The notes below the pieces were generated by a model. It worked only from the letters and a program-made list of their open reading frames with translations, was not told the origin of the DNA and ran no database searches. Position numbers and translations under genes: made by a program. Positions 1-7,447 of a stretch of 10,179 nucleotides of DNA are shown here, piece by piece. Origin of the DNA: a virus (lineage: Duplodnaviria > Heunggongvirae > Uroviricota > Caudoviricetes); the IMG/VR virus record IMGVR_UViG_2778261689_000005; one strand, 5' to 3'. The stretch's first letter is position 1. Every line of letters starts with the position of its first letter.

Positions 1-1053
1 TTACGGGGTAATGCCAACCGCTGCCGCCACTTTGTCGCCACTTGGCAGCGTTGCCAGAGGATTGAAACGGAGCGCCGTTTCCAGATGATCCGGTGCCAGA
101 TGTGCGTAACGCATAGTCATTTTTATATCGTGGTGTCCGAGAATTTTTTGTAAGGCCAGAATGTTTCCACCCGACATCATGAAGTGCGCCGCAAACGTAT
201 GGCGCAGAACGTGTGTGAGTTGACCGCGAGGGAGCACGATAGACGTTTTTTCCATCACGGATAAAAATTGAAAATAGCAGTCTGTGAAGAAATTGAACCC
301 ATCAAGCGCCATGATCTCTTCGTAAAGCTCTTTACTGATAGGGATACTTCTGTTTTTCTTCCCCTTCGTTCTTACAAAGGTAATTCGGTATTTGGTCACC
401 TGTGAACGAGTAAGATTTACGGCTTCTCGCCAGCGTGCGCCTGTGCTTAAGCATATCTTAACTACCAGTGCTAGAATTGGGTCCTGACGTTTGCAATCAG
501 CCAGTAATTCAACAATCTGCTCATGGGTAAGCCATGCCATCTCTTTTTCTGCGATGGTGAATTTTCGCATGTTCTCCAGTGGGTTCGGATACGCCCATTC
601 GCCCAGACGGGATAGTTCGCTAAAAACACTACTTAGATAGCTTTGCTCCAGGTTAATGGTGACCGGGCTTGCTCCTTTCTTCCATTTCTCGCTGAAGTAG
701 ATCTCGCCTGTCAGGCGTTTATCTCGATAGTGGGCAAACATTTTAGAGGTGAGATCGGTTGCAAGAGGATTGCCCAGAGCGTCAACCATCAGCAGCAATT
801 TGTCATAGACATGCTGCCCAGCAGTCAGAGATTTACCATGTAGTTTGAACCATAGCTCAACCACGTCTTTCAGGGTTCGACGATCCACTGATTCGCCCAG
901 CCATGGCTTTGATTCGGTTTCTTCCATAGTGTGACGCTCAAAAGCCAGAGCTTCGCCTTTGGTGGCGAATTGTTTACGCACACGACGCCCACTTCGTCCG
1001 GCGGGGTAACATTCGCAAAGCCATTTCCCTGTGGTGAGTTTTCGTACTGCCAT
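1..1053 (-). CDS. int: P2/186-family tyrosine integrase (site-specific recombinase), about 350 aa
   Basis: Six-frame ORF 1..1209(-). Start placed at ATG 1051-1053 (minus) because the protein from there (MAVRKLTTGKW...GRRVRKQFATKGEALAFERHT) matches the N-terminus of P2 Int as I recall it, and GGAGGG lies about 7 nt upstream on the minus strand. C-terminal catalytic region has tyrosine-recombinase motifs (LSTGARWREA, HVLRHTFA, LGHHDIKMTMRYAH). The upstream 52 codons of the ORF are probably not translated. Confidence 0.9.
   Translation of the reverse strand: MAVRKLTTGKWLCECYPAGRSGRRVRKQFATKGEALAFERHTMEETESKPWLGESVDRRTLKDVVELWFKLHGKSLTAGQHVYDKLLLMVDALGNPLATDLTSKMFAHYRDKRLTGEIYFSEKWKKGASPVTINLEQSYLSSVFSELSRLGEWAYPNPLENMRKFTIAEKEMAWLTHEQIVELLADCKRQDPILALVVKICLSTGARWREAVNLTRSQVTKYRITFVRTKGKKNRSIPISKELYEEIMALDGFNFFTDCYFQFLSVMEKTSIVLPRGQLTHVLRHTFAAHFMMSGGNILALQKILGHHDIKMTMRYAHLAPDHLETALRFNPLATLPSGDKVAAAVGITP
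19..40. repeat. attL core candidate: 22-bp direct repeat CGCTGCCGCCACTTTGTCGCCA, inside the 3' end of int
   Basis: Matches 7325..7346 at 21 of 22 positions (C versus T at the 12th base). A match this long is not expected by chance in 10 kb. Flanking sequence on either side of the two copies is unrelated. Position (int 3' end on one side, just after the ogr stop on the other) is what a P2-like prophage boundary looks like. Confidence 0.6.
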
Positions 1054-1448: not shown

Positions 1449-2018
1449 CTATTTAACATACTTGACTGTTAAACTTATAATTTTACCAATTATTTCAATG
1501 TCTTCTATCTTACATTCGAAGGCTCTGTTTCCACCCTCGACGAAGATTCTTCCACCGGGTAAACGAGTAATGTCACGGATCGTTACTTCGCCATCAATAC
1601 TTATTACCCATTTACCATCACGTATATCATCAAATTCTTTATCACAAATAAATTCAGAATTGTTATCTGTGATGACAAAAGGTTTTTTAAACGTAGAGGG
1701 TAAAAATCCCTTATCAAAAATATAAAAACCGTCTTCACGCAAGGCACCATCAGATAATACATATTTAGCAACTTCCATAGTATTTGTATTACCTGAAGTT
1801 TGCTTTGAACCATGTCCGGTTGTGAGCCAATTAAGCGAGGTGCCCGTTTCAAGGGCGCACTGGATTACCCATTCTGCTGGGAATGAGTCACGCATGTAGC
1901 GTGTGGCGAGTGTACTTTTAGAGATTCCTAAATGATCGCACAACGCCTGTCGAGTTTTGAATCCATAAGCTTCTACCATGCGCTCTATAGCGCCTCGTCC
2001 GCCTTTCTCCAAATTCAT
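1449..2018 (-). CDS. cI: Phage 186-type CI immunity repressor, about 189 aa
   Basis: Six-frame ORF 1449..2024(-) begins at GTG; the ATG two codons in (2016-2018) with GGAG about 5 nt upstream is the likelier start. Motifs EAYGF, ALETG..L.WL.TG.G, RLPGG and FEC.I.DI match what I recall of 186 CI. Divergent from the apl-cII operon, as in 186. Confidence 0.85.
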   Translation of the reverse strand: MNLEKGGRGAIERMVEAYGFKTRQALCDHLGISKSTLATRYMRDSFPAEWVIQCALETGTSLNWLTTGHGSKQTSGNTNTMEVAKYVLSDGALREDGFYIFDKGFLPSTFKKPFVITDNNSEFICDKEFDDIRDGKWVISIDGEVTIRDITRLPGGRIFVEGGNRAFECKIEDIEIIGKIISLTVKYVK

Positions 2019-2042: not shown

Positions 2043-2071
2043 TTGACGATTTCATTGTGCGATCGTATGTT
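2043..2071 (+). promoter_or_regulatory. Candidate rightward early/lytic promoter (pR-like): TTGACG, 17-bp spacer, TATGTT
   Basis: -35 TTGACG at 2043-2048 and -10 TATGTT at 2066-2071 with a 17-nt spacer, in the 125-bp region between divergent cI and apl. Flanked by inverted hexamers GTGAAC (2030-2035) and GTTCAC (2078-2083) that could be operator half-sites. A GATC lies in the spacer (2062-2065). Leftward pL could not be placed with confidence. Confidence 0.4.
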
Positions 2072-2143
2072 TATGGTGTTCACAAAATACAAACGATCCG
2101 TATTCGTCCTGATTAATCATCATTAAACGAGGAATGTTGCATC

Positions 2144-2365
2144 ATGAGACCTAACATTTCAATCACTCTTACCACGCCTCATGTGACTATTGAGCGCTAT
2201 AGCGAGCTGACAGGGCTGTCCATCGATACCATCAATGACATGTTGGCTGACGGACGCCTTATCCGTCACCGTTTGCGCAAAGATAAAAAACGCGAAAAAG
2301 TGATGATCAACATAGCAGCCATGACCGTTGATGCGCTTTCAGAATGCAATCTAAACCTTAATTAG
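2144..2365 (+). CDS. Apl/Cox-like helix-turn-helix excisionase and switch regulator, 73 aa
   Basis: First gene of the rightward operon, GAGGAA about 9 nt upstream of ATG. HTH-like segment [25 protein letters not shown] and overall size and position match P2 Cox / 186 Apl. Confidence 0.7.
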
Positions 2366-2397
2366 TTCGATTCTGAAATACATCAGAGGCATTGACC

Positions 2398-2907
2398 ATG
2401 TTTGATTACCAAGTTTCCAAACATCCACATTTTGATGAAGCCTGTCGTGCATTTGCACTGCGCCACAATCTGGTGCAACTGGCAGAACGTGCAGGCATGA
2501 ATGTGCAGATTCTGCGGAACAAGCTGAACCCAGCTCAGCCTCATCTATTAACCGCACCAGAAATCTGGCTGCTTACCGATCTGACTGAAGATTCAACGCT
2601 GGTAGATGGTTTTCTGGCACAGATTCATTGTCTGCCATGTGTACCGATTAATGAGGTGGCAAAAGAGAAACTGTCACATTACGTCATGAGTGCAACCGCA
2701 GAGATCGGGCGTGTTGCTGCAGGTGCGGTATCTGGCGATGTAAAAACCAGTGCAGGTCGTCGTGATGCTATCAGCAGCATTAACTCTGTAACACGACTGA
2801 TGGCGTTGGCTGCTGTTTCATTGCAGGGCCGTTTACAGGCTAACCCTGCGATGGCGAGTGCAGTTGATACCGTGACCGGACTCGGTGCTTCATTCGGTTT
2901 GCTGTGA
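2398..2907 (+). CDS. cII: Phage 186-type CII regulatory protein, about 169 aa
   Basis: Six-frame ORF 2392..2907 starts at TTG; ATG at 2398 gives [20 protein letters not shown]..., which matches the 186 CII N-terminus as I recall it. AGAGG about 8 nt upstream. Confidence 0.85.
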
Positions 2908-2914
2908 GGTGCTT

Positions 2915-3211
2915 ATGCTGACGAAAGAACCATCATTTGCATCGCTGCTGGTAAAGCAAAGCCCGGCAATGCACTACGGTCACGGCTGGATCATGGGTGA
3001 GGATGGAAAACGCTGGCATCCATGTCATTCACAAGATGAATTGCTGTCTGAATTGACCACGAGGAAACGGAGAAAGTCAAAATGTATGCAGCGGAAAGTG
3101 AAGTGGTTTATCAGTTTTGTTACAGAGGGGAGAGTTATTCAGTACCTGAAGATGATTTGCTCTGTTGTTATCCGTCGTTGTCGGGCGATGGCAGTTACTT
3201 TTTCACGCTAA
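2915..3211 (+). CDS. Small early-region protein (98 aa as open), possibly Fil-like; 3' portion uncertain
   Basis: ATG 2915 with GAGGT about 4 nt upstream, immediately after the cII stop. N-terminal half (MLTKEPSFASLLVKQSPAMHYGHGWIMGEDGKRWHPCHSQDELLSELTT) is protein-like. The C-terminal 43 codons overlap the next ORF in another frame and look low-complexity. Confidence 0.45.
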   Translation: MLTKEPSFASLLVKQSPAMHYGHGWIMGEDGKRWHPCHSQDELLSELTTRKRRKSKCMQRKVKWFISFVTEGRVIQYLKMICSVVIRRCRAMAVTFSR

Positions 3212-3306
3212 AGGATGGGACGTTTTTACGGGGAGAGCAGGTTAAAGAGATGGTACGAAAAAATGTATCTCCCCTTGAGCGTTACCGTAAGAACAAAGAA
3301 CGATAG
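3082..3306 (+). CDS. Hypothetical early-region protein, 74 aa
   Basis: ATG 3082 with GGAG about 9 nt upstream. Protein-like composition. Overlaps the 3' end of the preceding ORF by 130 nt in a different frame. Confidence 0.4.
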   Translation: MYAAESEVVYQFCYRGESYSVPEDDLLCCYPSLSGDGSYFFTLKDGTFLRGEQVKEMVRKNVSPLERYRKNKER

Positions 3307-3328
3307 GTGCGTTTGGGGGATATGAAGT

Positions 3329-3670
3329 ATGGCAATTAATGGCGCTGCGGCGACTGTTCCATTAAGCCCCGGAGAACGCCTGAATGGACTTAATCACATT
3401 GCGGAATTAAGGGCGAAAGTATTTGGCCTGAATATTGAGTCAGAGCTTGAGCGGTTTATTAAAGATATGCGTGATCCACGGGATATCAATAACGAACAAA
3501 ATAAACGGGCACTGGCTGCCATATTCTTTATGGCAAAAATTCCAGCTGAACGTCATAGCATCAGCATTAATGAGCTGACCACTGACGAAAAGCGGGAGTT
3601 GATTAAAGCAATGAATCATTTTCGTGCAGTGGTGAGCTTATTTCCCAGACGGCTAACCATGCCGAATTAA
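3329..3670 (+). CDS. Hypothetical early-region protein, 113 aa
   Basis: ATG 3329 with GGGGGA about 8 nt upstream. Balanced, charged, helical-looking sequence with no internal low-complexity. Same strand and operon context as cII and dam. Confidence 0.6.
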   Translation: MAINGAAATVPLSPGERLNGLNHIAELRAKVFGLNIESELERFIKDMRDPRDINNEQNKRALAAIFFMAKIPAERHSISINELTTDEKRELIKAMNHFRAVVSLFPRRLTMPN

Positions 3671-3737
3671 CCAACCAATGAAATTAATGGCGTAAACCCG
3701 CCGGGCATCCCTTTATCTAAATTCAGGAGAATTGATT

Positions 3738-3971
3738 ATGCGTAATATTGAAACCCTCTCGACCAAAACCGGACCGGATGACGCAGGGCTTAATATTTTA
3801 CTGACAGAGGCTCGTCTGGAAGAACGCCGGGCAAGGGCTGAAGCAATGGCAGCTCGCCTTGATAGCCTGGCGTGTCATATCACATCCCGCCAGCTAACCC
3901 ACGTCGAAGCGGCAGAACTGCTTCGTGTGACTGCTGAAGCAATCCAGAACGAAGCGCAGGAGATCCACTAA
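3738..3971 (+). CDS. Hypothetical early-region protein, 77 aa (resembles a conserved P2-like early protein, possibly DUF2732-like; family name from memory only)
   Basis: Six-frame ORF 3732..3971 starts at TTG; ATG 3738 with AGGAGA about 7 nt upstream is preferred. Stop TAA overlaps the start of the next gene (TAATG at 3969-3973). Confidence 0.6.
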   Translation: MRNIETLSTKTGPDDAGLNILLTEARLEERRARAEAMAARLDSLACHITSRQLTHVEAAELLRVTAEAIQNEAQEIH

Positions 3972-4198
3972 TGGCTGATGCAATGGATCTCGTACAGCAG
4001 CGCGTTGAAGAAGAACGCCAACGCCATATCCGTGCTGCCCGTGCCAAAACGCCGGGCGTGTCCCGCGTGCTTTGCATTGAGTGTGAAGCGCCAATTCCGC
4101 CAGCACGCCGCCGTGCCATTCCGGGTGTGCAGCTTTGCATTACCTGTCAGGAAATCGCAGAGCTGAAAGGCAAACATTACAACGGAGGTGCTGTATGA
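3971..4198 (+). CDS. TraR/DksA-family C4 zinc-finger protein, 75 aa
   Basis: CxxC...17 residues...CxxC arrangement (CIECEAPIPPARRRAIPGVQLCITCQ) and size typical of TraR-like proteins of F plasmid and P2-like phages. AGGAGA about 8 nt upstream. Start overlaps the upstream stop and the stop overlaps the dam start. Confidence 0.8.
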   Translation: MADAMDLVQQRVEEERQRHIRAARAKTPGVSRVLCIECEAPIPPARRRAIPGVQLCITCQEIAELKGKHYNGGAV

Positions 4199-5052
4199 GC
4201 ACCATCCTGAAATGGGCGGGAAATAAAACTGCCATAATGTCCGAACTGAAAAAACATCTTCCTGCTGGCCCGCGACTGGTTGAACCTTTCGCGGGTTCCT
4301 GTGCTGTGATGATGGAGACGGATTATCCCAGCTATCTGGTTGCGGATATTAATCCTGATTTAATCAACCTCTATAAAAAGGTTGCCGCTGATTGTGAATC
4401 GTTTATATCTCGCGCCAGAGTTTTATTTGAGATCGCAAACAGGGAGGTGGCTTATTACAACATAAGGCAGGAGTTTAATTACTCAACTGAAATTACTGAT
4501 TTCATGAAAGCGGTATATTTCCTGTATCTCAATCGTCACGGTTACCGTGGTTTATGTCGCTATAACAAGAGCGGGCATTTCAACATTCCCTACGGTAATT
4601 ATAAAAATCCGTATTTCCCTGAAAAAGAAATTCGCGCATTTGCAGAAAAGGCCCAGCGAGCAACGTTTATCTGCGCCAGCTTTGATGAAACGCTGGCGAT
4701 GTTGAAGGCGGGGGATGTGGTGTATTGCGATCCGCCGTATGACGGTACGTTTTCCGGCTATCACACTGACGGCTTCACTGAAGATGACCAGTATCACCTG
4801 GCATCTGTTCTTGAACATCGGTCATCAGAAGGACATCCGGTCATTGTTTCTAACAGTGACACATCCCTGATCCGTTCGCTGTATCGCAATTTTACTCACC
4901 ACTACATCAAGGCAAAACGCAGCATCGGTGTGGCAGCTGGCGAGGGTAAATCAGCAACAGAAATCATTGCTGTTTCCGGGCCGCGCTGCTGGGTGGGATT
5001 TGATTATTCGCGTGGCGTGGATAGTTCTGCCGTGTACGGAGTACGTGCATGA
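4195..5052 (+). CDS. dam: Dam-family DNA N6-adenine methyltransferase, about 285 aa
   Basis: Six-frame ORF 4135..5052; start placed at ATG 4195 (GGAGG about 5 nt upstream, ATGA overlap with the upstream stop). N-terminal LKWAGNK, SAM-binding-like EPFAGSCAV and catalytic DPPY motifs in the order seen in Dam-family enzymes. Confidence 0.9.
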
Positions 5053-6308
5053 GTCATGCCGATATGAACAACTGCTGCGGCTTTAACGAAGCTGCCGCAT
5101 CGTTCTCATGGAACAGCCCGAAAAAGGCCATTAACCCTTATCTGGACCCGGTGGAAGTTGCGCCGGTTTCTACGCTTTCAAACCTGATCACTCTGTACGC
5201 TGCCGATAACGAGCAGGAACAGCTGCGCCGTGAGGCGCTGAGTGATCAGGTCTGGGAGCGTTATTTCTTTAATGAATCCCGTGATCCTGTCCAGCGCGAA
5301 ATGGAACAGGATAAGCTCATTAGTCGGGCAAAGCTGGCGCATGAGCAGCAGCGTTTTAATCCGAATATGGTCATTCTGGCGGACGTCAACGCCCAGCCTT
5401 CCCATATCAGCAAGCCGCTGATGCAACGTATTGAATACTTCAGCAGCCTGGGCAGGCCAAAGGCTTATTCCCGCTATTTACGTGAGACGATTAAGCCATG
5501 TCTGGAACGACTGGAGCATGTACGCGACAGTCAGCTATCTGCATCTTTTCGCTTTATGGCAAGCCATGAAGGGCTGGACGGCCTGCTGATCCTGCCTGAA
5601 ATGAGTCAGGATCAGGTGAAACGCCTGTCCACCCTGGTAGCTGCGCATATGAGTATGTGCCTTGATGCCGCTTGTGGCGATTTGTATGCCACCGATGACG
5701 TTAAGCCAGAAGAAATCCGCAATACATGGGAAAGGGTGGCAGCGGAAACCCTGCGTCTGGATGTCATCCCGCCTGCGTTTGAGCAACTCCGTCGGAAAAG
5801 AAACCGCCGTAAACCCGTGCCCTATGAACTCATTCCGGGTTCGCTGGCGCGTATGTTGTGCGCCGACTGGTGGTATCGGAAATTATGGAAGATGCGTTGC
5901 GAATGGCGGGAAGAGCAGTTGCGTGCAGTCTGCCTTGTCAGCAAAAAAGCATCTCCTTATGTCAGCTATGAAGCCGTGATGCATAAACGTGAGCAGCGCC
6001 GTAAGTCGCTGGAGTTTTTCCGTTCTCATGAACTGGTGAACGAAGACGGCGACACGCTGGACATGGAGGATGTGGTAAACGCCAGCAGCAGCAACCCAGC
6101 GCATCGCCGCAATGAGATGATGGCCTGTGTTAAAGGTCTGGAGCTTATCGCGGAAATGCGCGGTGACTGCGCCGTTTTCTACACCATCACCTGTCCGTCA
6201 CGTTTCCATTCCACGCTAAATAACGGCAGGCCCAACCCAACCTGGACAAATGCGACGGTACCCGCCGTGAAAAATCGTGGCATAAGACCACCGTCGGGGA
6301 AGTGGTGA
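5049..6308 (+). pseudogene. A: Truncated replication initiation gene A (P2 gpA family); N-terminal ~395 codons retained, catalytic domain missing
   Basis: ATGA overlap with the dam stop; GGAG about 7 nt upstream. Internal segments ([35 protein letters not shown]) align with the N-terminal half of P2 gpA as I recall it. The frame ends at 6306-6308 before the region that would carry the metal-binding histidines and active-site tyrosines. The last ~22 codons read gene D sequence out of frame. Confidence 0.8.
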
Positions 6309-7015
6309 AGGAAATAGCCGCGCGGCACAAGCTGAAGATGGCACTGGGTAAAGACCTGTCGGATAAGCCCGTGGAGCATATAGACCAGACTAATGAGAGT
6401 GACGGCAGTTTTCTGATGCGGCTGGCGCGACAGTACGGTGCCATCGCGTCGGTGAAAAATGGCAATCTGTTATTCATCCGGCAGGGGCAGGGCAAAAGCG
6501 CCACTGGTAAACCTCTGCCAGTGATCACTATCACACGCAAGGACGGCGACAGTCACCGATTTACCCTGGCAGATCGCGGAGCCTACACGGGCGTAATTGC
6601 CAGCTGGTTGCATACCCGCGAACCTGCGAAGAAAGAAAGCACCACGGTGAAGCGTAAGCGCAGAACTAAGAAGCAGAAGAAAGAGCCAGAAGCGAAGCAG
6701 GGCGATTATCTGGTGGGTACGGATGAAAACGTGCTGGTACTTAATCGCACTTATGCCAACCGGAGCAACGCCGAACGAGCGGCGAAAATGCAGTGGGAAC
6801 GCCTGCAACGCGGCGTTGCGTCATTTTCGCTACAACTGGCAGAAGGGCGGGCAGATCTCTACACGGAAATGCCTGTGAAGGTCAGTGGTTTTAAACAGCC
6901 GATAGATGATGTGGAATGGACCATTACGACTCTGACGCATACCGTCAGCCCGGATAACGGTTTTACGACCAGTCTGGAGCTTGAAGTGAGGATTGATGAT
7001 TTCGAAATGGAATGA
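6224..7015 (+). pseudogene. D: 3' fragment of tail gene D (P2 gpD family), about the C-terminal 250 codons, lacking its own 5' part
   Basis: Open frame from the stop at 6221-6223 to TGA 7013-7015; first in-frame start is GTG 6302. Segments SWHKTT, ESDGSFLMRLAR, SVKNGNLLF, ADRGAYTGV, GRADLYTEMPVKVSGFK and GFTTSLELEV are characteristic of gpD. Similarity appears to begin near 6255-6265, directly after gene A similarity ends, in a different frame. Confidence 0.75.
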
Positions 7016-7105: not shown

Positions 7106-7324
7106 ATGATGATTTGCCCACTGTGTGGAAGTGCAGCCCATACTCGCAGCAGTTTTCAGGTATCTTCATTGACCAAAGAGCGTTACAACCAGTGCCAGAA
7201 CATTAACTGCAGCCATACTTTTGTTACCCATGAAACTTTTGTTCGTTCGATTGCAACGCCAAAAGAGTCAAATCCGGTTCAGCCGCATCCAATGAAATCA
7301 GGACAGGTGGCGCTCTCTCTTTGA
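7106..7324 (+). CDS. ogr: Ogr-family zinc-finger late-gene transcriptional activator, 72 aa
   Basis: Six-frame ORF 7073..7324; start placed at ATG 7106 (GGGGAG about 9 nt upstream), giving MMICPLCGSAAHTRSS...KERYNQCQNINCSHTF..., which parallels P2 Ogr including the four zinc-ligand cysteines. Size matches Ogr. Confidence 0.85.
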   Translation: MMICPLCGSAAHTRSSFQVSSLTKERYNQCQNINCSHTFVTHETFVRSIATPKESNPVQPHPMKSGQVALSL

Positions 7325-7346: not shown

Positions 7347-7400
7347 TCGTTAAAAAACAGTGCTTCTAACATCATGATTTTAAACAGCTTAAATTTCAGG

Positions 7401-7447
7401 CAACAAAAAACCCATCAACCTTGAACCGAAATGGCGGGGTTGATGGG
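7401..7447 (-). terminator. Rho-independent terminator candidate downstream of ybjL
   Basis: Perfect 10-bp inverted repeat CCCATCAACC (7411-7420) and GGTTGATGGG (7438-7447), followed on the minus strand by TTTTTTGTTG (complement of 7401-7410). Loop is long (17 nt) but can pair internally. Lies about 113 nt past the ybjL stop. Confidence 0.4.

Follow-up and report, generated by a model that had tools for sequence, protein, structure and literature searches.

The Dam ORF of retron-Ec67 is reportedly 285 aa long and 44% identical to the Dam of Escherichia coli. The element that carries it is a 186-related prophage of approximately 34 kb that has 26-bp flanking repeats and encodes Dam (PMC7826664), and the title of Hsu, Inouye & Inouye (1990, PNAS 87:9454) names 'Dam methylase functions' of the retron-Ec67 element. 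The GATC-reading residues of E. coli Dam itself are K9, Y119, L122, R124, P134 and Y138 (PMC4417163). In phage P2, the genes Orf80-Orf81-Orf82-Orf83-A are transcribed from the repressor-controlled early promoter Pe. [quoted passage not shown]

The stretch of DNA analysed here (the window, 10,179 nt) matched the chromosome of E. coli strain L9 at 100% identity from end to end, and in that strain rcdA and ybjL flank a 7.5-kb remnant of a P2/186-like prophage. The remnant contains an intact Dam-family gene at 4195..5052 on the + strand, the product of which belongs to a clade of P2/186-like temperate phages (Peduoviridae) first described on the retron-Ec67 prophage. The best explanation, which we hold with good confidence, is that this gene encodes an orphan alpha-class D12 Dam of that clade, directed at GATC and probably translated in coupling with its upstream neighbour, and that it is probably a silent relic in this strain.

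What is left of the prophage is int, cI, an early operon that breaks off halfway through gene A, part of gene D, and ogr. At its left end is the integrase, a tyrosine recombinase (1..1053, − strand; Pfam Int_N and Phage_integrase; a RefSeq CDS in L9), followed by an intact 186-type CI immunity repressor (1449..2018, − strand; Pfam Phage_CI_repr and Phage_CI_C; RefSeq 'phage repressor protein CI'). Tail gene D (6260..7015, + strand) lacks approximately 115 N-terminal codons, as judged from BLAST and from its match to positions 93–302 of 305 of the Phage_GPD profile. The ogr/Delta late-gene activator (7106..7324, + strand; PF04606; RefSeq CDS) is intact, with no late genes left as targets; the gene D fragment and ogr are all that is left of the late region with its head, tail and lysis genes. 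A repeat search identified a 26-nt direct repeat, of which the right copy (attR) is at 7390..7415 (+ strand) and the left copy 74–99 nt beyond the window edge, between rcdA and int; the two copies (5901-5926 and 13390-13415 in the wider locus, L002) are 85% identical. Relative to phage Cartapus, BLAST indicated a deletion of approximately 24.6 kb, removing three quarters of the prophage genome. The junction lies at 6259/6260 within a 2-bp (TA) microhomology, the match to A ending at 6260 and that to D beginning at 6259.

A sequence-only reading of this DNA had assigned Dam to a prophage and proposed that, if its target is not GATC, it would add a new methylation mark on induction. The element is a deletion remnant and not an inducible prophage: it has no late genes, no functional A protein and no origin, and therefore no normal lytic programme stands behind a mark of that kind. 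The same reading had listed the ORF at 5049..6308 as gene A. This ORF consists of the first 404 of 804 A codons (5049..6260, + strand; BLAST break at 6260 against Cartapus) and 15 out-of-frame codons from the adjoining gene D remnant, ending at the TGA at 6306-6308. It matched only positions 1–215 of 321 of the Phage_GPA profile and lacks both the catalytic tyrosines of the YIAKYISK motif (Tyr498/Tyr502) and the ori-equivalent codon 674. Truncated A and truncated D are both labelled pseudogenes in RefSeq.

The dam gene itself is full length. Its 285-aa product, an N6-adenine DNA methyltransferase predicted to be GATC-specific from residue mapping, matched PF02086 over profile positions 1–253 of 253 (E = 1e-76; 258.5 bits, cutoff 22) and TIGR00571 at 321.9 bits (cutoff 114.85), so that the earlier description of an intact ORF stands. 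Against the housekeeping equivalog NF008152/PRK10904 the protein scored 288.1 bits, below the cutoff of 441; on these sequence grounds it is a phage xenologue and not an orthologue of the chromosomal dam. The gene was present at ≥90% nucleotide identity in 1239 of 5426 complete E. coli genomes, and the exact protein on at least 1000 contigs. A first search of viral contigs with the window Dam returned only sequences 98–100% identical to it, and the search was redone with the Dam proteins of Fels-2 and ESSI-2; residue conservation was assessed over 185 distinct relatives, 48–99.6% identical to the prophage Dam. The gene family, its slot before gene A in P2/186-like phages and its TraR-like neighbour are already known and routinely annotated, and dam is here an ordinary annotated feature rather than a new methylation system.

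Four ORFs (3738..3971, 3971..4198, 4195..5052 and 5049..6308) form a tightly overlapping block of the early operon, with the coordinates and overlaps previously reported. The first is a DUF2732 gene, a homologue of P2 Orf80 (+ strand; PF10809, E = 1e-28). The second (+ strand) encodes a 75-aa TraR/DksA-family C4 zinc-finger protein, a homologue of P2 Orf82 that scored 65.8 bits against TIGR02419 (cutoff 59.7) and 43.5 bits against PF01258 (cutoff 24.9), with PDB matches to TraR at E ~3e-9. Its four cysteines (C35, C38, C56 and C59) were invariant across an alignment with TraR and P2 Orf82, and D3 and D6 of the DxxDxA motif are present, with Val instead of Ala at position 8. The suggestion that this protein could act on RNA polymerase has an experimental precedent in P2 Orf82, to which it is 47% identical.

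The overlaps consist of TAATG between the DUF2732 and TraR-like genes (TAA 3969-3971, ATG 3971-3973) and ATGA both between the TraR-like gene and dam (ATG 4195-4197, TGA 4196-4198) and between dam and truncated A (ATG 5049-5051, TGA 5050-5052). Shine–Dalgarno-like (SD) elements lie 6–8 nt before the four starts (in order AGGAG, AGGAG, GGAGG and GGAG), those of the overlapping starts within the preceding coding sequence. Among 252 related loci, the upstream stop overlapped the Dam start in 251 (by 4 nt in 179 and by 10–11 nt in 66). Between the Dam stop and the ORF that follows, the overlap measured 4 nt at 140 loci and 10 nt at 70. The overlaps at dam are thus not due to chance. A gene other than the TraR-like one preceded dam in approximately 110 of the 252 relatives with the overlap unchanged, the alternatives being a DnaQ-like exonuclease, another methyltransferase and a group read as ASCH-like from sequence only. 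The TraR–Dam partnership implied earlier is consequently not obligate.

A predicted RNA hairpin spans the Dam start (4175..4214, + strand). In its core, 4184-4192 (GGAGGUGCU), comprising the Dam SD and the last TraR codons, pairs with 4198-4207 (AGCACCAUCC), comprising Dam codons 2–4, and the 5-nt loop contains the ATGA stop/start overlap. The fold of 4155-4235 had a predicted energy of −26.2 kcal/mol (z = −3.46), reached in 1 of 200 shuffles. A second predicted hairpin (GGAGAUCC/GGAUCUCC; 3960..3991, + strand) pairs the SD of the TraR-like gene, with the TAATG overlap in its loop and a GATC in both arms; the fold of 3950-4000 gave −15.2 kcal/mol (z = −2.17; 4 of 200 shuffles), and the hairpin was partly kept in relatives. 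In the proposed mechanism, the Dam SD within the last TraR-like codons would be sequestered by dam codons 2–4, and a ribosome ending the upstream gene would open the SD and could re-initiate at the start codon in the loop. Coupling of dam translation to the upstream gene is therefore plausible on the overlaps and the predicted hairpin. Of the coupled translation proposed for the whole block, the overlaps are real and conserved, but covariation support for the hairpin is absent.

Overlaps of 1 and 4 nt are the commonest class in the operons of bacteria and phages. They may accordingly reflect genome compaction only, each gene being translated from its own SD and the hairpin being a by-product of coding constraints, an explanation to which we assign a minor but appreciable chance. 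Independent initiation is possible because each of the four starts has its own SD, and the A-start hairpin was no more stable than shuffles (z = −0.77). At the Dam start, 86% of cells were paired in an alignment of 53 distinct junction sequences, compared with 42–53% when the partner was slid. The covariation test on the same 53 junctions was not significant (86.4% paired vs 86.2% in shuffles), and no covariation is claimed because the shuffles reach equal pairing; coding and SD constraints alone could be the source of the conservation. Compaction does not readily account for a Dam-start fold that is far more stable than its shuffles and that buries exactly the SD while leaving the start in the loop. 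Nor does it account for the upstream genes, since the unrelated proteins preceding dam all terminate in Gly-Gly-Ala/Val-x-stop, a peptide whose codons form the SD arm, and coding needs are hard to invoke for an identical arm at the end of unrelated genes.

The dam start thus appears to be built for translational coupling regardless of which gene lies upstream, which may be of interest for phage biology, and the arrangement moves with dam whichever gene precedes it. A stronger version, which we consider unlikely, is that the dam ribosome-binding site and hairpin constitute a portable coupling cassette that slaves Dam to its neighbour, and that the TraR–Dam pair of the remnant could be derepressed. 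Were this true, the 5′ arm would be written into the last four codons of any gene landing upstream and Dam synthesis would always be throttled by translation of the neighbour. Derepression of the pair would then provide the cell with a second, conditional supply of Dam and, alongside it, an RNA polymerase regulator that mimics ppGpp.

Returning to coupled but silent dam as the preferred reading, expression was considered from the position of the gene in the rightward early operon. A consensus scan identified a promoter-like site (TTGACG-17-TATGTT; 2043..2071, + strand) in the cI/cox intergenic switch region, with a GATC inside it at 2061-2064. By analogy with P2 Pe, this site is a candidate early promoter of the whole rightward operon including dam. 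The overall number of promoter-like sites was not above the shuffle expectation. Downstream of it on the + strand, Pfam, PHROGs and RefSeq identified a Cox/Apl-like gene (2144-2365), a CII gene (2398-2907), a Fil gene (2915-3211), a phrog_4312 ORF (3082-3306) and a DUF5347 gene (3329-3670). From 2072 to 4195 the consensus scan gave no + strand match that could serve as an internal dam promoter. A 186-type CI repressor would keep the rightward early operon, dam included, off in lysogens. Because the cI gene is intact and + strand promoter-like sites are absent between 2072 and 4195, dam in this strain is probably silent, an intact relic of a recent deletion. Counts of GATC gave no signal of depletion or enrichment (42 sites vs 37 ± 6 expected).

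In a complete phage, Dam would top up GATC methylation of fast-replicating phage DNA or, alternatively, would shield phage DNA in hosts with GATC-directed restriction. The supply of host Dam is limiting where DNA is present in high copy number, and overexpression of Dam sets off retron-Sen2 (bioRxiv 10.1101/2020.06.22.160242). An extra dose of Dam is thus not inert even alongside host Dam: high-copy DNA that is under-methylated can become methylated, and retron defence can be set off, so that the intact remnant dam may not be harmless if derepressed. Such physiological effects would be in keeping with selection having kept the remnant, with cI domesticated by the host for immunity and the TraR-like/Dam pair serving as a second conditional Dam or stress module, as would the intactness of int, cI, cox, cII, fil, the TraR-like gene, dam and ogr despite the loss of approximately 24.6 kb. 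The distribution and age of the remnant argue against domestication, which we regard as quite improbable. The whole window, including the deletion junction, was found in one piece at 100% identity in only 2 of 5426 complete genomes (L9 and EC-07); a third genome, TUM12357, matched 96% of the window at 100% identity, and other strains have larger or differently decayed prophage copies at the same chromosomal site. In addition, the block from DUF5347 through DUF2732, TraR and Dam to truncated A (3329-6260) shares 97% identity with Peduoviridae phages, Cartapus and Klebsiella 4LV2017 among them, so that the retained genes resemble those of live phages and a recent deletion would have left no time for decay.

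The target of the enzyme had previously been considered unreadable from sequence, which is too pessimistic. All six GATC-reading residues of E. coli Dam are conserved in the prophage Dam (as K6, Y117, L120, R122, P132 and Y136), and the equivalents of K9, L122, R124, P134 and Y138 were invariant in the 185 distinct relatives, in which the intercalating Y119 is Y or F (Y here). The catalytic DPPY motif lies at D179-P180-P181-Y182, aligned to D181–Y184 of E. coli Dam, and was likewise invariant. Matches of the prophage Dam with solved structures were E. coli Dam, DpnM and T4 Dam, all three of them GATC enzymes. The name 'retron EC67 DNA adenine methylase' is given both to the Fels-2 entry and to the cluster at 90% identity that includes the prophage Dam, and the family can be followed back to the Dam of the retron-Ec67 prophage. 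Because the GATC-reading residues and DPPY are conserved and the protein clusters with retron-Ec67 Dam, the prophage enzyme most likely methylates GATC, duplicating host Dam, and no strain-specific methylation motif would therefore be expected from it.

The protein departs from E. coli Dam at two DNA-facing positions (N120 to R and R137 to N). Across the 185 relatives, position 120 is R or N and position 137 is N, K or H, and a somewhat altered or relaxed specificity is conceivable. The further step to a target other than GATC, or to relaxed specificity that would yield a new methylation mark when expressed, is highly improbable. In its favour, some silent prophage adenine methyltransferases, M.EcoGII for example, are non-specific on expression (PMC5778455). 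It is opposed by the invariant base-specific contacts, by the GATC target of the nearest solved relatives, and by the retron-Ec67 name of the clade, an element credited with Dam functions at least in the 1990 title. Literature searches found no direct DpnI/MboI assay for a P2-like Dam or for Fels-2 STM2730, and nothing relevant on Eco67Dam/P21311. A link to M.EcoMIV, a silent prophage Dam homologue of the ST131 strain EC958 (PMC4659465), was unsupported, there being no dam in the two EC958 regions considered (core genes and a P2-like prophage). Papers on a Serratia P2-like prophage and on a Serratia BZS1 methyltransferase were rejected as parallels, as they concern host Dam or a different (MT-A70) family.

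SAM-binding motif I reads FAGSC (F32-A-G34-S-C36) in the prophage Dam compared with FVGAG (FxGxG) in E. coli Dam, the last glycine being replaced by Cys. Of the two motifs earlier described as intact, DPPY is, whereas the SAM motif departs from FxGxG. Every one of the 185 distinct relatives has this Cys, which therefore reads as a trait of the clade rather than a lesion and, on this conservation, is probably tolerated. That the methyltransferase is catalytically dead despite its open frame, for example through this replacement of the third glycine, is barely credible given that the relatives sharing the Cys include those from sequenced phage genomes, that comparison with Cartapus shows 17 synonymous and 5 non-synonymous codon differences, and that neither DPPY nor other checked positions, among them E33, D54 and F35, vary.

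The value of the analysis is corrective, in showing a decayed prophage with a truncated gene A and a methylase strongly predicted to target GATC, and it carries little weight as a discovery. Compared with E. coli Dam (PDB 2G1P, 4GOL and others), the prophage Dam has the same fold family and motif order, with 47% identity over 269 aligned residues (E = 2e-73) and 126 of its 285 residues (44%) identical. It differs in N120R, R137N, G39C, a 5-residue deletion after DPPY and the C-terminal tail, and is phage-borne and repressor-controlled, unlike E. coli Dam. The TraR-like protein shares with F-plasmid TraR and lambda Orf73 a length of approximately 75 aa, an N-terminal helix with D3/D6, a C4 zinc ribbon and a C-terminal KHY motif; at position 8 of DxxDxA it has Val where P2 Orf82 has Ile.

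Like the retron-Ec67 prophage Dam (M.Eco67Dam), the present enzyme is an orphan Dam homologue encoded by an E. coli prophage related to 186, and the 26-nt flanking repeats compare with the 26-bp repeats of the Ec67 element. This likeness is drawn from shared names and context, and the length of 285 aa and the 44% identity to E. coli Dam also agree with those reported for the Ec67 ORF. Unlike Ec67, there is no retron in the window and the dam copy lies in a 7.5-kb deletion remnant. The Dam proteins of Fels-2 (STM2730), SopEPhi, SEN8, Klebsiella ST15-OXA48phi14.1 and Cronobacter ESSI-2 show 48–73% protein identity. In these Peduoviridae, dam lies directly before A with overlapping stops and starts, as here, whereas the upstream partner varies (TraR-like, exonuclease or, by sequence reading only, ASCH-like) and the ESSI-2-type dam has a 10–11 nt overlap and a different predicted hairpin.

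In P2, the same 1-nt and 4-nt stop/start overlaps are present, and the order of a DUF2732 gene (the annotation of P2 Orf80), a TraR-like gene, one small gene and then A is shared. P2 has no dam, its Orf83 (DUF5405) filling the slot that dam occupies here, and has the extra Orf81; gene A is truncated here, and the immunity region is 186-type (CI/CII/Fil) compared with the P2-type C of P2.

The feature at window 4195–5052 (+ strand) is a phage Dam gene of a known kind, annotated as a matter of routine, whose product almost certainly targets GATC; the prophage that carries it is a defective remnant. The 285-aa protein matched the full Pfam profile of D12-class N6-adenine methyltransferases (E = 1e-76), scored 321.9 bits with the Dam family model of NCBIfam (above its cutoff of 114.85) but 288 bits with the housekeeping-Dam equivalog (below its cutoff of 441), and is classed on sequence as a phage xenologue of Dam. 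In a search of solved structures the best match was E. coli Dam (E = 2e-73), followed by DpnM and T4 Dam, all GATC enzymes; in a global alignment with E. coli Dam, 126 of the 269 aligned residues (47 %) were identical.

In E. coli Dam, R124 touches the guanine in base pair four and L122 and P134 touch the pair next to it, Y119 intercalates, N120 hydrogen-bonds to a base, and K9 and Y138 read the first base pair (PMC4417163). The aligned residues in the window protein were R122, L120, P132, Y117, K6 and Y136, with the N120 position changed to R118. Among 185 distinct Dam proteins (48–99.6 % identical to the window protein) from 252 loci in viral contigs and phage records, K9, L122, R124, P134, Y138, DPPY and R249 were invariant, with variation at Y119 (Y/F), N120 (R/N) and R137 (N/K/H). 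A GATC target is therefore strongly predicted, and the earlier view that sequence does not reveal the target was too cautious. The sequence-only reading of intact SAM-binding and DPPY motifs held for DPPY, while motif I ends in Cys rather than Gly (FAGSC, versus FVGAG in E. coli Dam); as this Cys is invariant across the clade, it appears to be a lineage trait rather than damage. Compared with the Escherichia phage Cartapus (Peduoviridae), 17 codons of dam differed synonymously and 5 non-synonymously.

The gene is widespread, being found in 1239 of 5426 complete E. coli genomes (at least 90 % nucleotide identity in nearly all matches), and the exact protein occurred on at least 1000 contigs. 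All 40 records listed from the E. coli sample were annotated 'DNA adenine methylase', and among these a TraR/DksA gene flanked dam in nearly all and a replication endonuclease in most. A homologue 54 % identical in Yersinia phage vB_YenM_42.18 (locus L092, 1501–2280) is split into small ORFs and carries no methylase annotation, which suggests that this sequenced phage has dam as a pseudogene.

The four ORFs at 3738–3971 (DUF2732 in Pfam), 3971–4198 (75 aa, DksA/TraR zinc finger in Pfam), 4195–5052 and 5049–6308 overlap exactly as had been described, by TAATG at 3969–3973 and ATGA at 4195–4198 and 5049–5052. The overlapping-gene observation is thus real but ordinary, and its gene A part was misread. 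The ORF at 5049–6308 matched only positions 1–215 of the 321-position Phage_GPA profile (Pfam), and in BLAST comparison with Cartapus the match to A stops at window 6260 and that to tail gene D begins at 6259. Gene A breaks off at codon 404 of its 804, is followed by 15 out-of-frame codons and is joined out of frame to codon ~115 of a D that lacks ~115 N-terminal codons; both fragments are pseudogenes in RefSeq. In Cartapus coordinates ~24.6 kb is absent, and with it every head, tail and lysis gene. At the 6259/6260 junction (window 6230–6290) there is a microhomology of 2 bp (TA), and some imperfect similarity (AAACGC..GA..TA) extends to either side, pointing to illegitimate recombination as the origin of this internal deletion.

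The YIAKYISK motif of P2 A is kept in Cartapus A. Tyrosines 450 and 454 of P2 A, which we take to be the active-site pair, correspond to Cartapus A 498 and 502, and the annotated P2 ori nick site in A codon 619 corresponds to Cartapus codon 674, all past the break. With these and the structural and lysis genes gone, the remnant is incapable of starting phage replication or producing particles. Intact relatives carry a DinI-family gene downstream of A, in the region deleted here; as the 186 antirepressor Tum is DinI-related, an SOS route to derepression may have been lost as well.

The chromosomes of E. coli L9 (chicken, China) and EC-07 were identical to all 10,179 bases, and no other complete genome contained the window uninterrupted, with its deletion junction, at that identity; a third genome, TUM12357, matched 96 % of the window at 100 % identity. 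At this site other strains have prophage copies that are larger or have decayed in another way. In the RefSeq annotation of L9, the left edge of the window is the stop codon of the prophage integrase adjoining rcdA, and the order is integrase, short phage segment, then host ybjL, ybjM and grxA. The remnant is bounded by a 26-nt direct repeat whose copies are 85 % identical, at window 7390–7415 and just left of the window (5901–5926 of the L9 region, L002), with the common core CAACAAAAAACCCAT, and measures ~7.5 kb between them. Window 3329–6260, which holds the overlapping gene block, was 97 % identical to P2/186-like phages of the Peduoviridae, among them Cartapus and Klebsiella phage 4LV2017. 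With int and cox intact, the remnant might still be able to excise. An IS30 transposase gene overlaps the annotated nfsA 3′ end in L9 (L002 17292–18443), ~7 kb right of the window.

Upstream lies a 186-type immunity region with intact CI, a Cox/Apl-like gene, CII and Fil. By scan and sequence, a promoter-like site was located at 2043–2071 in the cI/cox spacer, and the scan gave none on the + strand between 2071 and dam, so dam transcription most likely relies on the repressor-controlled early promoter. Two GATC sites fall in the cI/cox switch region (2043–2098), one of them (2061–2064) in the spacer immediately before the −10-like hexamer of the putative early promoter, and Dam methylation there could in principle touch the lysis–lysogeny switch. 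GATC content across the window was unremarkable (42 sites, 37 ± 6 expected). Window 3047–3328 is a ~280-bp segment lacking a counterpart in Cartapus or the E. coli NC19 prophage (~32 bp there); it extends the Fil ORF to 98 aa (versus 66 aa in relatives) and contains a 74-aa ORF (3082–3306) matching phrog_4312. Between int and cI, a 63-aa ORF (1242–1433, − strand) matched phrog_6000 and, at 115.8 bits (cutoff 93), NCBIfam NF007463 (PRK10040 'hypothetical protein'). It is hydrophobic at the N-terminus, contains several cysteines and resembles a small secreted protein of lysogenic conversion (a moron).

Each of the four starts has a Shine–Dalgarno (SD)-like element 6–8 nt upstream, within the preceding ORF. 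The 81-nt fold at the dam start was predicted at −26.2 kcal/mol (z = −3.46 against shuffled sequences, 1 of 200 as stable; z = −2.19 for 51 nt), with GGAGGUGCU, comprising the SD and last TraR codons, pairing with AGCACC(A)UCC in dam codons 2–4 and the ATGA overlap in the loop. A similar predicted hairpin (3960–3991, z = −2.17) buries the SD of the TraR-like gene; it is an inverted repeat with GATC in each arm (3962 and 3986), the second being GGACC in many relatives, which weakens the helix. At the A start the fold was indistinguishable from shuffles (z = −0.77).

The upstream stop overlapped the dam start in 251 of the 252 loci (by 4 nt in 179 and 10–11 nt in 66), and 142 of 142 TraR-like genes examined overlapped their own upstream stop by 1 nt. 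The gene upstream of dam was TraR-like in just 143 loci, the remainder including DnaQ-like exonucleases, another methyltransferase and several read as ASCH-like from sequence. Nearly all of these unrelated genes finish in Gly-Gly-Ala/Val-x-stop, the peptide of the hairpin SD arm, so the initiation region appears to be a property of dam that is forced on whatever gene is upstream. Across 53 distinct junction sequences the dam helix was paired in 86.4 % of cells, versus 42–53 % with the partner slid. Covariation was absent in these junctions (86.2 % after 3′-letter shuffles, two double-change cells only), and coding and SD constraints could account for the conservation of the hairpin. Coupling of dam translation to the upstream gene is accordingly rated plausible and somewhat favoured, rather than proven.

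The second, ESSI-2-type Dam subfamily (L175–L254, ~48 % identical, N-terminus MAVKTPLKW) deals with this junction through another structure: the upstream gene stops 10–11 nt inside dam (...GGAAWQ*), and the local hairpin is predicted to pair the AUG rather than the SD. In viral contig L034, dam starts with TTG for ATG, with the hairpin unchanged. At the other end of the gene, the NC19 prophage at the same site carries an 822-bp hypothetical gene between dam and A (L003 7797–8624), as do some relatives, in which the last ~80 nt of dam also differ; ATCC 8739 and others match just nt 1–776 of the window dam. The insertion and the divergent 3′ end mark the dam–A junction, on sequence comparison, as a cargo insertion point at which the overlap is not obligatory.

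Phage Dam enzymes in general provide the basis for two possible roles in an intact phage. Produced alongside the replication proteins, a GATC methylase would most plausibly keep fast-replicating phage DNA fully methylated or, alternatively, shield it in hosts with GATC-directed restriction. Surplus Dam is not inert in cells already having Dam: the endogenous enzyme does not suffice for high-copy DNA, and Dam, when overexpressed, methylates the msDNA of retrons and sets off the retron-Sen2 toxin (bioRxiv 10.1101/2020.06.22.160242). In L9 the operon is preceded by an intact repressor gene and belongs to an element unable to replicate, and the intact dam is best explained as a consequence of recent deletion, not domestication.

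The arrangement repeats the P2 early plan, in which Orf80 (DUF2732), Orf81, Orf82 (TraR-like), Orf83 and A overlap by 1, 1, 4 and 11 nt; dam occupies the Orf83 slot. The 75-aa TraR-like protein scored above the TraR-family model cutoff, matched TraR structures and was 47 % identical to Orf82, keeping D3, D6 and the four zinc-binding cysteines, with Val at position 8 of the N-terminal DxxDxA motif versus Ile in Orf82. P2 Orf82, driven by the early promoter Pe, can stand in for DksA in a dksA deletion and competes with it for RNA polymerase; its IC50 for inhibition of rrnB P1 is 250 nM (PMC9239242). With this precedent in the same phage group, the suggestion that the window protein could modulate RNA polymerase is reasonable.

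A named parallel to dam is retron-Ec67. According to PMC7826664, the Ec67 element, described in 1990, is ~34 kb, flanked by 26-bp direct repeats and encodes a Dam methylase, and it was subsequently seen to be a 186-related prophage; the title of the 1990 paper ascribes 'Dam methylase functions' to it. The remnant's 26-nt repeat has the length reported around that prophage. The Fels-2 homologue (73 % identical to the window Dam) is recorded as similar to 'retron EC67 DNA adenine methylase', and one of the 4038 members of the 90 %-identity cluster holding the exact window protein bears that name. The Dam ORF in the 1990 paper reportedly had 285 residues and 44 % identity to E. coli Dam, a figure equal to that of the window Dam (126/285).
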